Shown here piece by piece: positions 33,709 to 36,774 of a DNA stretch of 64,000 nt. How positions within the stretch are numbered: position 1 is the stretch's first letter; each line of letters begins with the position of its first letter. Location: NCBI GenBank assembly GCA_965203355.1, contig OZ241889.1:1-64000 (forward strand), written 5' to 3'. The position numbers were made by a program, and so were the translations under genes. The DNA comes from Candidatus Latescibacterota bacterium (GTDB lineage: Bacteria; Latescibacterota; UBA2968; UBA8231). Under the pieces are notes generated by a model. The model ran no database searches and was not told the DNA's origin. It saw nothing but the letters and a program-made list of their open reading frames with translations.

Positions 33709-35937
33709 ATGATTTACTACGCACATTCCCTAGAAGGTCAGTCGAAGGAACACTGGCAACCGCTACGGGAACACCTGCTCAAGGTCCAAGACGAAGCGGT
33801 GATACGGGGAACCAAGTTCGGTGTTGGCAAAGCCGCGGGATTGGCTGGGCTTTTGCACGATCTCGGCAAGTACACAGAAGCGTTCCAGCAGCGTCTAGCG
33901 GATGGAGCAAGCGTTGATCACGCCACAGCCGGAGCCAAACAAGTCTGTGATTTTACAGTAACAGAAAAACAAGATCGGGCCATAGCACAGTTGCTCGCTT
34001 ACGCCATCGCCGGGCACCACGGGGGTCTGCCGGACATGCACAGTAGTACCGGCTCAGACAATTCGCTTGATGAACGGCTAAAAAAGACGCTTGATCCGCT
34101 TGACTCGACTTGGGAGTTAGAAATTCAGCCTAACGCTACTGGTCTTTGGCCTAAAGGGTTCAAATTGGAGAAGGCGGCAGTAGCGTTCCAGCTTTCCTTC
34201 CTGACACGGATGATCTTCTCGTGTCTTGTCGACGCAGACTTCCGCGACACCGAGCGATTTTACGCTGCGGCAAAAGGTGAGACCATTGACCGTGCCTGGC
34301 CGGTGCTTCCCGAAATAATCGACCCGCTACGCAATAGACTTAACAACCACTTCGCCGGTTTTCCCAGCGAAGGCAAGGTCAATCGCCTGCGCCGCGAAAT
34401 TCTGGAATATGTTCGGACTCAAGCGGATTGCTCCCCGGGCCTATTTTCGCTCAACGTACCGACAGGTGGCGGCAAGACGCTGACTTCCCTCGCCTTTGCT
34501 CTCGACCATGCCAAAGCACACGGGCTTGAGCGCATCGTCTATGCGATCCCTTTTACTTCAGTAATAGATCAGACTGCGGAAATTTTTCGCGATGTGCTAG
34601 GAAAAGATGTAGTCCTTGAACATCATTCGGCGATTGACGAAACCAAGTTCACAAATCGGGCGGGAGCCGATAAGCTACGGCTTGCCATGGAGGATTGGGG
34701 TGCTCCTATCGTCGCAACTACCAACGTCCAGCTCTTTGAAAGCCTATTCGCCCATCGCCCATCGCGGTGTCGCAAGTTGCACAATTTGGCTCGTGCGGTC
34801 ATTGTCTTAGACGAAGCGCAGACTATCCCCCTACATGTACTACGGCCTTCAGTTGCTGCTCTTGATGAACTAGGTCGTAACTATGGTTCATCTATCGTGC
34901 TCTGCACCGCAACACAGCCAGCACTCAAGGCATCTGAGTTCAAAGGTGGCTTTGAAAGAGTCCGTGAACTGGCACCGGACCCGCCCAGCTTGCACCAGCA
35001 GCTTGCCCGCGTCACCATCGGCCATAAGGGTACGCTCGGCGACGACGACCTATGCAAGACCCTCGCCCAAACGGAGCAAGGTATGGTTATTGTCAACAGC
35101 CGGAAACACGCCTTGGACCTTTTCCGGCAAGCCTGCGAAGCAGACATGGAAGGCGTCGTACATCTGAGTACGCGGCAATACGCAGCACATCGCCGCCGCA
35201 TCCTTGAGGGTGTACGCCAGCGGCTAAAGACAGGCAGGCCGTGTCGGTTGGTTGCCACTTCGCTGGTAGAGGCAGGCGTCGATCTGGACTTTCCAAGAGT
35301 TTGGCGGGCCGAGGCCGGGCTCGATTCGATTGCCCAAGCTGCTGGACGGTGCAATAGAGAGGGAAAACGAGAGGTTGCAGACAGTATCGTTACTGTGTTC
35401 CAGCCAGCGGAACATTCCAGTCCGGCCGAGTTGAGCCAACTCGCCGGAGATATGGAACGCATCATGGGTCGCCACGACGACCTACTATCGACAGAAGCTA
35501 TAAAAGACTACTTCAAAGAGGTGTACTGGCGCACAGACGCAAGACTTGGCGATGATTTCTTGCAAAAGTTCAAGATTCGCAAGGACGGCACTGGCACTTC
35601 TTTCTCCTTCCGCGAGGTTGGCGAGGAGTTCCGTCTGATTCGGAACGGTATGCTGCCGGTGATCGTCGCCCGAGAAGAGGAAGCGCACAAGGCTTTGCGC
35701 TATCTCGCTTACACCGAACGGCCCGGCAGCGTGGCCCGGCGGCTCCAGCCTTACATCGTGCAAGTTCATCCTCGTTCTTTAGGACAGCTTCTAAAAAACA
35801 ATCACGTTTGTTTTGAGGCACAGAGACGCTTCGGAGACCAGTTCGCCGTTCTCTTCACTAAGAGTCTCTATCGAGAAGATGTCGGTCTCCTTTGGGAGGA
35901 CGCGGATACGCTCGACAATGAGGTGATGATAATATAA
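33709..35937 (+). CDS. cas3: CRISPR-associated HD nuclease/helicase Cas3 (type I-C)
   Basis: YAHS, LHDLGK, HHGGL, LVDAD, PTGGGKT, DEAQ, TAT and QAAGRCNR; AGGAGG RBS before ATG 33709. Confidence 0.97.
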   Translation: MIYYAHSLEGQSKEHWQPLREHLLKVQDEAVIRGTKFGVGKAAGLAGLLHDLGKYTEAFQQRLADGASVDHATAGAKQVCDFTVTEKQDRAIAQLLAYAIAGHHGGLPDMHSSTGSDNSLDERLKKTLDPLDSTWELEIQPNATGLWPKGFKLEKAAVAFQLSFLTRMIFSCLVDADFRDTERFYAAAKGETIDRAWPVLPEIIDPLRNRLNNHFAGFPSEGKVNRLRREILEYVRTQADCSPGLFSLNVPTGGGKTLTSLAFALDHAKAHGLERIVYAIPFTSVIDQTAEIFRDVLGKDVVLEHHSAIDETKFTNRAGADKLRLAMEDWGAPIVATTNVQLFESLFAHRPSRCRKLHNLARAVIVLDEAQTIPLHVLRPSVAALDELGRNYGSSIVLCTATQPALKASEFKGGFERVRELAPDPPSLHQQLARVTIGHKGTLGDDDLCKTLAQTEQGMVIVNSRKHALDLFRQACEADMEGVVHLSTRQYAAHRRRILEGVRQRLKTGRPCRLVATSLVEAGVDLDFPRVWRAEAGLDSIAQAAGRCNREGKREVADSIVTVFQPAEHSSPAELSQLAGDMERIMGRHDDLLSTEAIKDYFKEVYWRTDARLGDDFLQKFKIRKDGTGTSFSFREVGEEFRLIRNGMLPVIVAREEEAHKALRYLAYTERPGSVARRLQPYIVQVHPRSLGQLLKNNHVCFEAQRRFGDQFAVLFTKSLYREDVGLLWEDADTLDNEVMII

Positions 35938-35940
35938 AAT
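35912..35940 (+). promoter_or_regulatory. Putative sigma70 promoter for the mini-CRISPR
   Basis: TCGACA-N17-TAAAAT ending 13 nt upstream of the degenerate repeat. Confidence 0.55.
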
Positions 35941-35953
35941 GTATAGTAGTAGG

Positions 35954-36058
35954 GTCGCTCTTGCATGGGGCGCGGATTGAAACTACATGTATTACGTACA
36001 CACACATGCCTGTCGCCTCTAATAAAGGAGGGGCGACAGGTTTTCTTTATTTTCTTCA
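35954..36058 (+). ncRNA. Mini-CRISPR / CRISPR-like regulatory RNA (degenerate repeat, 28-nt spacer, repeat-derived hairpin terminator)
   Basis: GTCGCTCTTGCATGGGGCGCGGATTGAAAC (35954-35983), spacer TACATGTATTACGTACACACACATGCCT, then GTCGCCTCT...GGGGCGAC hairpin and T-tract. Confidence 0.75.
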
Positions 36059-36093
36059 TTGACAGGATAAATTTTCTATATATATTAAGTATA
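36059..36093 (+). promoter_or_regulatory. cas5 operon promoter containing a TTC-PAM-flanked partial target of the mini-CRISPR spacer
   Basis: TTGACA(36059)-N16-TATATT(36081); TTC at 36074-36076 followed by TATATATATTAAGTATA. Confidence 0.7.
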
Positions 36094-36114
36094 GCACTGA
36101 CAAGGAGTTCATCC

Positions 36115-36774
36115 ATGTTTGGAGTACGTCTGCGCGTGGGAGGCCAATACGCCTGTTTCACGCGACCAGAAATGAAGGTCGAGCGCGTGTCTTACGATGT
36201 AATGACGCCTTCAGCGGCACGCGGTATCTTGGAAGCCATTCACTGGAAGCCAGCTATAGTCTGGCGCATTGACCGCATTCACGTCCTCAAGCCAATTCGG
36301 TTCCAGTCGATCCGGCGCAACGAAGTCGGCAAAAAAATTCCCATGGGGTCCGTCCGCACAGCAAAAAACAGGGGTTCTATCGAGAAGCTCTATACCAAGG
36401 TTGACGAAGAGCGCCAGCAACGCGCCGCTACTGTATTAGCCGACGTAGAGTACGTCATTGAAGCGCACTTTGACATGACGGACGAAGCGGGCGAAAGCGA
36501 TAATGTGGGCAAACACCTCGACATCTTCAATCGCCGCGCCAGGAACGGGCAGTGCTTTCACCAGCCCTGTCTTGGAACGCGAGAATTTGCCGCAGACTAC
36601 ACACTCATCGAGAACGACGACCTGCCGCCAGCGATTGACGAAAGCCGCGACTTGGGCTGGATGCTCTACGATATTGACCACGCAAACGAGCGACAACCGC
36701 TTTTCTTTCGCGCCAGAATGAAACAGGGCGTTGTCGAAATTCCTTCTTCCAATTCGCCGGAGGTGTTGCAATGA
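36115..36774 (+). CDS. cas5: Cas5c (Cas5d) crRNA-processing protein
   Basis: ACFTRPEMKVERVSYDVMTPSAARGILEAIHWKP, GQCFHQPCLGTREF; AAGGAG RBS. Confidence 0.97.
   Translation: MFGVRLRVGGQYACFTRPEMKVERVSYDVMTPSAARGILEAIHWKPAIVWRIDRIHVLKPIRFQSIRRNEVGKKIPMGSVRTAKNRGSIEKLYTKVDEERQQRAATVLADVEYVIEAHFDMTDEAGESDNVGKHLDIFNRRARNGQCFHQPCLGTREFAADYTLIENDDLPPAIDESRDLGWMLYDIDHANERQPLFFRARMKQGVVEIPSSNSPEVLQ

Follow-up and report, generated by a model that had tools for sequence, protein, structure and literature searches.

CreR guides are set apart from CreA guides by their target, which overlaps the promoter of the cas effector genes. In the CreR work, subtypes I-B, I-E and V-A were tested and, in the part of that report available to us, I-C is mentioned as the find of a manual search (Figure S7; 10.1101/2023.03.10.532045). 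For the mini-arrays analyzed by Shmakov et al., the available text of the first preprint version describes targets for I-E, I-F1, I-D and I-B only (10.1101/2023.03.03.530964); for I-C, a mini-array fraction of 0.07 of 1,206 loci is given, with no target in that portion of the paper (PMC10120712). In Neisseria, type I-C crlRNAs are produced by Cas5c cleavage, with an 11-nt handle and a 3′ hairpin end; in the experiments described in the accessible sections, a 16 bp pairing beside TTC, with position 6 mismatched, leads to ∼21-fold repression (10.1101/2024.12.27.630466).

We describe here a unit located between cas3 and cas5c in a stretch of 64,000 nucleotides (hereafter the window, the whole of the DNA analyzed). 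Judged from its sequence and that of its relatives, the unit is probably, with roughly three chances in four, a crRNA-like regulatory RNA of the CreR type, belonging to a type I-C system. Coordinates are those of the window and all features of the locus lie on the + strand.

The type I-C locus and its mini-array

The type I-C gene set is complete (cas3, cas5c, cas8c, cas7, cas4, cas1 and cas2; NCBIfam) and the locus has no cas6, as expected for this subtype. The gene cas3 (HD nuclease and helicase) is the open reading frame at 33634..35937 (cas3_HD 1.5e-30, cas3_core 3.7e-29). It is followed by cas5c, the I-C pre-crRNA endonuclease, at 36115..36774 (TIGR01876, E-value 2.5e-55) and by cas8c, cas7, cas4, cas1 and cas2 at 36771..41567 (Cas8c/Csd1 5.1e-169, Cas7/Csd2 9.8e-116, Cas1c 1.7e-149). 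Downstream, a CRISPR array with 119 repeats of 32 nt (41754..49578) would be the source of competing canonical crRNAs; its repeat folds into a 7-bp stem with an 11-nt 3′ tail, as in I-C repeats. The gap between cas3 and cas5c is 177 nt long and contains the mini-array, with no credible open reading frame, cargo gene or toxin gene.

Two open reading frames overlapping this gap were rejected as genes. One is an N-terminally extended frame (35965-36774): the shorter form of 219 aa is preceded by a proper ribosome-binding site (AAGGAG, 36102-36107), and its residue 6 is where the Cas5c family alignment begins. The other is an antisense frame (35868-36161).

The mini-array starts with a degenerate repeat, psiR1 (35954..35983), recognized by its hairpin, its tail and its alignment with the array repeat (26 of 32 columns identical in a hand alignment). 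A hairpin of 6–7 bp and the exact tail GGATTGAAAC are retained, so that the geometry of the array repeat is preserved, and the tail of 10–11 nt would become the 5′ handle. In the window, GGATTGAAAC occurs 120 times (0.11 expected), 119 times in the array and once in psiR1. The psiR1 hairpin is kept in all four aligned relatives. A search against Rfam gives for psiR1 a weak match to CRISPR-DR9, below the gathering score (18.5 bits, E 0.27), and is otherwise sub-threshold, with a miRNA family spuriously matched at the terminator. Thus, psiR1 presents the features by which crlRNA and CreR units are recognized: a repeat-like unit with its handle-encoding end preserved, next to a cas operon.

After psiR1 comes the pseudo-spacer psiS (35984..36011), of which positions 1–15 form the guide part. 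It is 28 nt long, shorter than the spacers of the array (32–37 nt), and ends with 4 nt that belong to the stem of the next element. This element, psiR2 (36008..36056 with the T-tract that follows), is a repeat-derived hairpin starting with GTCGCC and is a predicted intrinsic terminator. According to the terminator scan, the hairpin (36008-36041) has 13 pairs, eight of them GC; its fold has a z score of −4.4 and one compensatory pair is present in the stem across four sequences.

A promoter, TCGACA-17-TAAAAT (35912..35940; 10/12 in a consensus scan), is predicted for the mini-array inside the end of cas3, where it overlaps the stop codon (35935-35937). Since the mini-array begins 17 nt past that stop codon, with no terminator between, the cas3 mRNA must read into it. 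A first-pass annotation of this DNA had described the promoter, the degenerate repeat with hairpin and handle, the 28-nt spacer and the second hairpin with its T-tract; each was found again at the same place.

A partial protospacer in the predicted cas5c promoter

A second promoter, TTGACA-16-TATATT (36059..36086; 11/12 in the consensus scan), is predicted for the operon cas5c-cas8c-cas7-cas4-cas1-cas2 and, like that of the mini-array, is a consensus prediction. The ATG of cas5c is found 29 nt farther downstream. A TTC PAM (36074..36076) lies within this promoter and precedes a partial protospacer (36077..36093) that spans the −10 box and the position where transcription is expected to begin. 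Two minor points of the earlier annotation are corrected: the distance from the spacer end to TTC is 62 nt instead of about 65, and the cas5c ATG is at 36115 instead of 36116.

Between psiS 1–17 and 36077-36093, 13 of 17 positions match (1–2, 4–5, 7–11, 13–15 and 17), with mismatches at 3, 6, 12 and 16, exactly as had been noted. Read by eye, none of positions 18–28 match the target. The pairing is therefore confined to the PAM-proximal part, with TTC and 13 of the 15 countable positions (6 and 12 being ignored) within 1–17. Both spacer and target have a low-complexity, AT-rich sequence, and the target is also under the constraint of the −10 box itself.

With its score of 13/15, the site outranks every other non-self match among the 127,960 sites of the window on both strands. 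The runner-up score is 11/15, at two sites, and among the 1,525 sites with TTC the next best score is 10. When spacer positions 1–17 were shuffled, 13/15 was reached at a local TTC site by one of 20,000 mononucleotide shuffles and by 33 of 20,000 dinucleotide-preserving ones; window-wide, 2 of 1,000 dinucleotide shuffles attained that score.

The same type of pairing occurs in other type I-C loci. We analyzed 20 of them in which a repeat-like unit precedes cas5c and, in 14, the best match found by a PAM-blind scan scores at least 12/15; all 14 matches lie next to TTC. In these 14 loci, positions 1–5 pair in every case, positions 7–11 in 12–14 and positions 13–16 in 12–13, whereas positions 6 and 12 match in just two and three. 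A simple search rule for regulatory guides of type I-C follows, with 1–5, 7–11 and 13–16 paired, 6 and 12 free, and always TTC. The window is atypical at position 3, which is mismatched there and paired in the 14 examples; therefore, binding of Cascade to the window site may be weak.

Conservation, covariation and loss in relatives

A homologous cas3-cas5c junction is present in 12 Latescibacterota genomes out of 167 searched. The full architecture (mini-array, promoter and TTC target) occurs in two of the 12, G159 and G165, and also on a contig variant ∼93%–95% identical to the window (runs X5/X6). Two metagenome scans led to no further relatives: a pattern spanning the ribosome-binding site and the start of cas5c retrieved no stretches, and a terminator-hairpin pattern retrieved nine, all unrelated on inspection.

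Guide and target have changed together at two positions. At position 1, spacer and target are T/T in the window and C/C in G159 and G165; at position 8, A/A in the window becomes G/G in X5/X6 (35991 and 36084). The spacer–promoter covariation proposed as a test in the first-pass annotation is thus seen in homologous I-C loci, as two events only, among four lineages. Such natural compensatory mutations substitute for the usual mutate-and-rescue experiment. The window, G159 and G165 have the same bases at psiS positions 2–15 and differ within positions 16–28. In the target, positions 6 and 12 vary with no matching change in the spacer and everything diverges past position 15, directly after which X5/X6 have a 13-nt insertion. 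TTC is kept in G159 and G165, with no change listed for X5/X6. The cas5c promoter is conserved in G159 and, with altered spacing, in G165; in X5/X6, paired indels hold the spacing at 16. The hexamer TCGACA of the mini-array promoter is present in the window, G159, G165 and a further relative (G001) and is unchanged in X5/X6. In the whole genomes of G159 and G165, a search for the PAM and target pattern, one mismatch allowed, yields a single site each, at the cas5c promoter (no match with a reversed-pattern control). The possibility raised earlier that equally good matches next to TTC could be common is thus not borne out, either in these genomes or in the window. Anatomy, singular match, conservation and covariation in relatives are direct observations.

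The mini-array could instead be what is left of a repeat-spacer unit that was displaced and is decaying without any role in trans, its hairpin serving to end cas3 transcription and its match being an AT-rich coincidence. Indeed, 10 of the 12 related genomes have no target, all four lineages share the seed mismatch at position 3, and the rate among dinucleotide shuffles makes a chance match rare yet possible; in addition, the available part of the first preprint version of Shmakov et al. treats some mini-arrays as degraded repeats (PMC10120712). Decay does not account for compensatory changes at two paired positions in different lineages, for an invariant segment 2–15 beside a drifting segment 16–28, for the conserved TTC, or for a site that occurs once in each of the G159 and G165 genomes and is the best in the window. 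We consider this explanation improbable.

The relatives with incomplete circuits are of two kinds. The one with the most similar Cas5c (G001, 93% identity) has kept the mini-array, in which a 4-nt insertion shifts the spacer register, and has lost the promoter and the target. No target for its guide was found in its own 6.7-kb locus L001 (best 8/15 with TTC, 10/15 with any PAM) or in loci L081 and L117 (best 11/15), and the G159/G165 pattern, searched genome-wide, gave no target in G001. Nine further relatives hold one decayed repeat only and no TCGACA hexamer. The cas5c 5′ UTR of these nine was rejected as a demonstrated guide for want of targets and fold. Within 5–7 kb per locus, no target flanked by TTC was found (best 11/15, one such with TTC), and the search of five whole genomes gave one match with a seed mismatch, against 10 in a reversed-pattern control. 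Their hairpin has no convincing consensus fold, is poorly conserved and is lost in two genomes. Full circuits, a guide with no target and single-repeat stumps thus exist within one clade, and by this comparison of sequences the circuit is labile and dispensable.

The single-repeat relatives bear on another explanation, in which the psiR1 hairpin is mainly a cleavage site for Cas5c in cis and a transcript boundary that uncouples cas3 from the Cascade operon, pairing being secondary or absent. Cleavage in cis by Cas5c would trim the 3′ end of the cas3 mRNA. The position of psiR1, so close to the cas3 stop codon with no intervening terminator, would suit such a role, as would the nine relatives in which a lone repeat-like unit has no DNA target, locally or (five genomes) genome-wide. 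Neither the covariation of spacer and target nor the conserved PAM is explained in this way, and the poor conservation of the single-repeat hairpins resembles decay and not a maintained function; this alternative also seems to us improbable. That the guide is functional but mainly directed to another promoter, of a toxin or defence gene as for CreA or the crlRNAs of CRISIS loci, with a minor role for the cas5c site, would agree with the control of cargo genes by crlRNAs in other I-C loci and with a scan of the window organism spanning 64 kb, and is very improbable considering that the cas5c promoter is the sole match, with one mismatch allowed, in the G159 and G165 genomes and that the 177-nt gap holds no cargo gene.

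Proposed mechanism and comparison with known systems

The core of the earlier annotation was that I-C Cascade is directed to the −10 box of the cas5c promoter by a crRNA-like RNA processed by Cas5c, a proposal which conservation, covariation, uniqueness and the pairing rule of other I-C loci, all at the sequence level, now support, and for which the I-C crlRNAs of Neisseria provide an experimental precedent (10.1101/2024.12.27.630466). The sequence, together with what has been published on related systems, leads us to infer the following steps. Transcripts of cas3 would include the mini-array as their 3′ tail, and the mini-array would probably be transcribed from its own promoter too. Cas5c would cleave psiR1 at the 3′ base of its hairpin, leaving the 11-nt handle, and the 3′ end of the guide RNA would be the repeat-derived terminator hairpin. 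Cascade loaded with this guide would bind at the TTC PAM, within the cas5c promoter, and pair with ∼15 PAM-proximal bases over the −10 box. Since ∼15 paired bases would be too few for a full R-loop and cutting by Cas3, Cascade would act as a repressor, staying bound and repressing its own operon. Competition by crRNAs from the array, or loss of Cascade to anti-CRISPRs, would lift the repression; such a response to crRNA load and anti-CRISPRs would be analogous to what the accessible text reports for CreR (10.1101/2023.03.10.532045).

In a more speculative and rather unlikely version, the guide would be a deliberately weakened rheostat coupled to Cas3 and not a simple on/off switch of its operon, made as an obligate 3′ tail of cas3 and kept at marginal binding by the conserved seed mismatch. 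Transcription of cas3 would then set the amount of repressor guide, and minor changes in crRNA load or in the amount of free Cascade would alter the output of the operon. If so, a seed mismatch that is conserved and under selection would represent a new principle in the design of crRNA-like regulators.

The comparisons with published systems that follow refer to the available portions of each report. The crlRNAs of Neisseria (Nezha, Gabija and other "CRISIS" cargo; 10.1101/2024.12.27.630466) belong to the same subtype and, as in the window, lie directly upstream of cas5c. They share with the window unit the repeat-like hairpin, the 11-nt handle, the pseudo-spacer, the 3′ hairpin and a target next to TTC with ∼16 positions paired and position 6 unpaired. 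Their target is upstream of a cargo defence gene between cas3 and cas5c; in the window, there is no such cargo, so that the arrangement defining CRISIS loci is not found, and, unlike in Neisseria, the target comes after the guide gene and covers the −10 box of a distinct, predicted cas5c promoter. With CreTA and CrePA (10.1101/2024.01.05.574328), the unit shares a crRNA-like guide, partial pairing and (as proposed here) promoter repression with no cleavage; it differs from them in that the cas3-cas5c gap carries no toxin gene and the predicted promoter directly precedes cas5c.

The mini-arrays of Shmakov et al. also have two repeats, in the gap that separates cas3 from the Cascade genes, the upstream one better preserved and the downstream one degraded (PMC10120712), with the seed beside the better repeat, a target in the Cascade promoter and unpaired sixth positions (10.1101/2023.03.03.530964). 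In I-E and I-F1, these mini-arrays run opposite to cas3, whereas that of the window is co-directional (PMC10120712). As with CreR (Liu et al., 10.1101/2023.03.10.532045), a degenerate mini-CRISPR stands beside the effector genes with no toxin, is predicted to be autorepressive and has partial PAM-proximal complementarity to the promoter of an effector gene with the cognate PAM. Unlike in CreR as described, the guide of the window is in the 3′ UTR of cas3, psiR2 is a predicted terminator and seed position 3 is mismatched.

A similar I-C architecture may already be in print, in Figure S7 of the CreR report (10.1101/2023.03.10.532045) or in Supplementary Data 1 of the Neisseria study (10.1101/2024.12.27.630466). 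The mechanism itself is not new, because regulators of this kind have been described, including in subtype I-C. The window unit is a well-supported new case and adds to the known systems a comparatively validated I-C example of crRNA-guided Cas autorepression, from an uncultured phylum, its closest relatives being labelled Latescibacterota.

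Mini-array in the cas3–cas5c gap

The window contains a complete type I-C locus (cas3, cas5c, cas8c, cas7, cas4, cas1, and cas2; NCBIfam) with, downstream, an array in which a 32-nt repeat ending in GGATTGAAAC occurs 119 times. Two array spacers, 41986–42019 and 42641–42674, are almost identical with a one-base offset, which suggests that one protospacer was the source of both, by repeated or slipped acquisition. The 10-mer GGATTGAAAC has 120 matches in the window (vs. 0.11 expected), and the one extra copy, at 35974–35983, lies in the 177-nt gap between cas3 (33634–35937) and cas5c (36115–36774).

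This copy is the 3′ end of a degenerate repeat (35954–35983) that folds, as the array repeat does, into a 6–7 bp hairpin with a 10–11 nt tail. A 28-nt pseudo-spacer (35984–36011) follows directly and, 3′ of it, a GC-rich hairpin of 13 bp, starting with GTCGCC like a repeat and followed by a T-tract (fold z = −4.4; scored as an intrinsic terminator in a terminator scan). On each side of the mini-array there is a promoter-like site (promoter scan): a predicted mini-array promoter, TCGACA-17-TAAAAT (35912–35940), within the 3′ end of cas3, and a predicted cas5c promoter, TTGACA-16-TATATT (36059–36086), 29 nt upstream of the cas5c start.

Spacer–promoter match and its covariation

The type I-C PAM is TTC and, in Cascade binding, every sixth base is flipped out. 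A TTC occurs at 36074–36076 and the next 17 bases, covering the −10 box in the predicted cas5c promoter, are those of pseudo-spacer positions 1–17 except at 3, 6, 12, and 16, as the first-pass annotation had reported. With positions 6 and 12 left out the score is 13/15; across both window strands (127,960 positions) no other non-self site scores as high (runner-up 11/15, at two sites); among the 1525 TTC sites of the window, the second-best score is 10. Shuffled spacers reach the target's score at a local TTC site in 1/20,000 (mononucleotide) and 33/20,000 (dinucleotide) cases. Because the score is the best in the window, the PAM is present, and shuffles rarely reach that score, the match is real and unlikely to be due to chance, although pseudo-spacer and target are both AT-rich.

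Among the Cas5c loci listed in a scan of genome contigs (at least 80), the closest, L001, carries a Candidatus Latescibacterota MAG label and is 93% identical in Cas5c. Junctions were searched in 100 relatives of its genome, then in 167 genomes of the phylum, 12 of which have a homologous cas3–cas5c junction. The full architecture of the window is shared by two of them (G159 and G165) and by a contig in sequencing runs of one study (X5/X6; ∼93%–95% identical to the window over 800 nt).

At position 1, spacer and target are T/T in the window and C/C in G159 and G165; at position 8, spacer (35991) and target (36084) both change from A to G in X5/X6. These are two separate events, each preserving a pair, and the support from covariation is limited to these two. 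At the flipped positions the target changes with the spacer unchanged (position 6 in G165, position 12 in X5/X6). Spacer positions 16–28 and the target flank past position 15 vary freely among relatives, with, in X5/X6, a 13-nt insertion immediately 3′ of target position 15. The TTC is identical in all three relatives and, in X5/X6, several small indels in the stretch from the −35 box to the PAM offset each other, so that the promoter spacing stays 16. Equally good TTC-flanked matches, had they been common, would have counted against a regulatory role; the PAM plus paired-position pattern (at most one mismatch) has a single match in the whole of G159 and of G165, both at the cas5c promoter, with none for the reversed pattern. 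Conservation and covariation together support the autorepression proposed from the first reading.

Seed position 3 is mismatched (spacer C, protospacer T) in all four lineages, unlike in the 14 matching loci of the class sample described below, where it is always paired; with this mismatch, Cascade may bind weakly.

The circuit is absent in 10 of the 12 related genomes. In G001, the genome of L001 (L001/L081), mini-array and terminator are present, 4 inserted nucleotides put the spacer out of register, and a 34-nt segment with the −10 box and target is missing between two TGACA repeats. There, the mini-array is ∼100 nt upstream of cas5c, with a strong terminator ∼14 nt before the ribosome-binding site and no promoter or target; the Cascade operon would rely on terminator read-through. 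The other nine (L082–L090, in G009, G022, G017, G002, G045, G093, G094, G084, and G078, all Latescibacterota) have a short junction of 52–65 nt with one decayed repeat-like unit ∼30 nt before the cas5c start, and neither a second hairpin nor a promoter. The unit consists of a hairpin (lost in two of the nine) and ATTGAAAY, followed by the cas5c 5′ UTR with its ribosome-binding site. Such junctions are probably deletion remnants of the full mini-array. We looked for a DNA target locally in these nine and across the whole genome in five, and found none; translational control, with Cascade assembling on its own mRNA, may operate there.

Pairing in other type I-C loci

A repeat-like motif 20–320 nt upstream of cas5c (regular expression) is found in 20 of the 80 Cas5c loci listed. 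In a PAM-blind scan of each locus, the best non-self match reaches the cut-off of at least 12/15 in 14/20, all 14 flanked by TTC; below it are L001, L003, L007, L010 (11/15, with TTC), L055, and L078. Positions 1–5 are paired in 14/14 loci, position 6 in 2, positions 7–11 in 12–14, position 12 in 3, positions 13–16 in 12–13, and positions 17–24 in 3–5. This predicted pairing is the signature of Cascade binding, and shows that putative guides of this kind are common in type I-C loci.

In twelve proteobacterial loci (L008, L014, L017, L018, L021, L025, L039, L043, L059, L062, L064, and L075), the target of the crRNA-like RNA (crlRNA) is ∼265–455 nt upstream of cas5c and, in most, near the cas3 stop. 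About 9/12 have an ORF of 30–60 aa, often hydrophobic, between target and repeat-like unit; these are candidate small toxins or cargo under CRISPR repression. A clamp stem of ∼11–17 bp encloses the repeat-like unit and pseudo-spacer in L003 and L008 (2885–3006 in both) and in L014 and L021 (2895–3006 in both), its 3′ arm including the cas5c Shine–Dalgarno just upstream of the ATG. Its sequence varies between the four loci with complementarity kept (fold z-scores −1.7 to −4.8), and it might link processing by Cas5c with translation of cas5c. We found no description of such a stem in the literature consulted.

Proposed mechanism and known systems

The guide would be transcribed as the tail of the cas3 mRNA and, probably, from a predicted promoter of its own as well, be trimmed by Cas5c, and have the terminator hairpin as 3′ end. 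Without recruiting Cas3, guide-loaded Cascade would then bind the TTC and ∼15 bases that cover the −10 box in the promoter of the cas5c operon, and block RNA polymerase. Anatomy, conservation, and covariation come from the sequences themselves; processing, binding, and repression are expected from the Neisseria and CreR work, and, purely by analogy, the circuit might sense crRNA load or anti-CRISPRs. On comparative grounds, there is good support for a type I-C autorepressor of the CreR type.

CreR autorepression has been demonstrated for types I-B, I-E, and V-A, with I-C examples reported after searching manually (10.1101/2023.03.10.532045). The survey by Shmakov et al., in its first preprint version (bioRxiv 10.1101/2023.03.03.530964, PMC10120712), gives mini-arrays in a fraction 0.07 of 1206 I-C loci; we found no I-C target in its text. 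Neisseria sicca I-C CreR loci are mentioned in another preprint as targets of phage mimics. In Neisseria, as sRNA-seq and reporters show, I-C crlRNAs adjoin cas5c upstream, Cas5c cleavage leaves an 11-nt handle, and the RNA, with a 3′ hairpin end, pairs over 16 bp beside a TTC, with position 6 mismatched and ∼21-fold repression (10.1101/2024.12.27.630466). The repressed promoter there differs in driving cargo defence genes between cas3 and cas5c (10.1101/2024.12.27.630466). In the Neisseria- or Eikenella-type loci L070, L080, and L078, the repeat-like unit is directly upstream of cas5c; L070 and L080 have a TTC-flanked target ∼1.8–2.0 kb upstream of cas5c, and the best match of L078 is only 11/15, with TTA. 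Their layout fits the cargo-controlling Nezha/Gabija-type arrangement published there (10.1101/2024.12.27.630466). The mechanism is already known, and what the window adds is another example of it, not a new mechanism.
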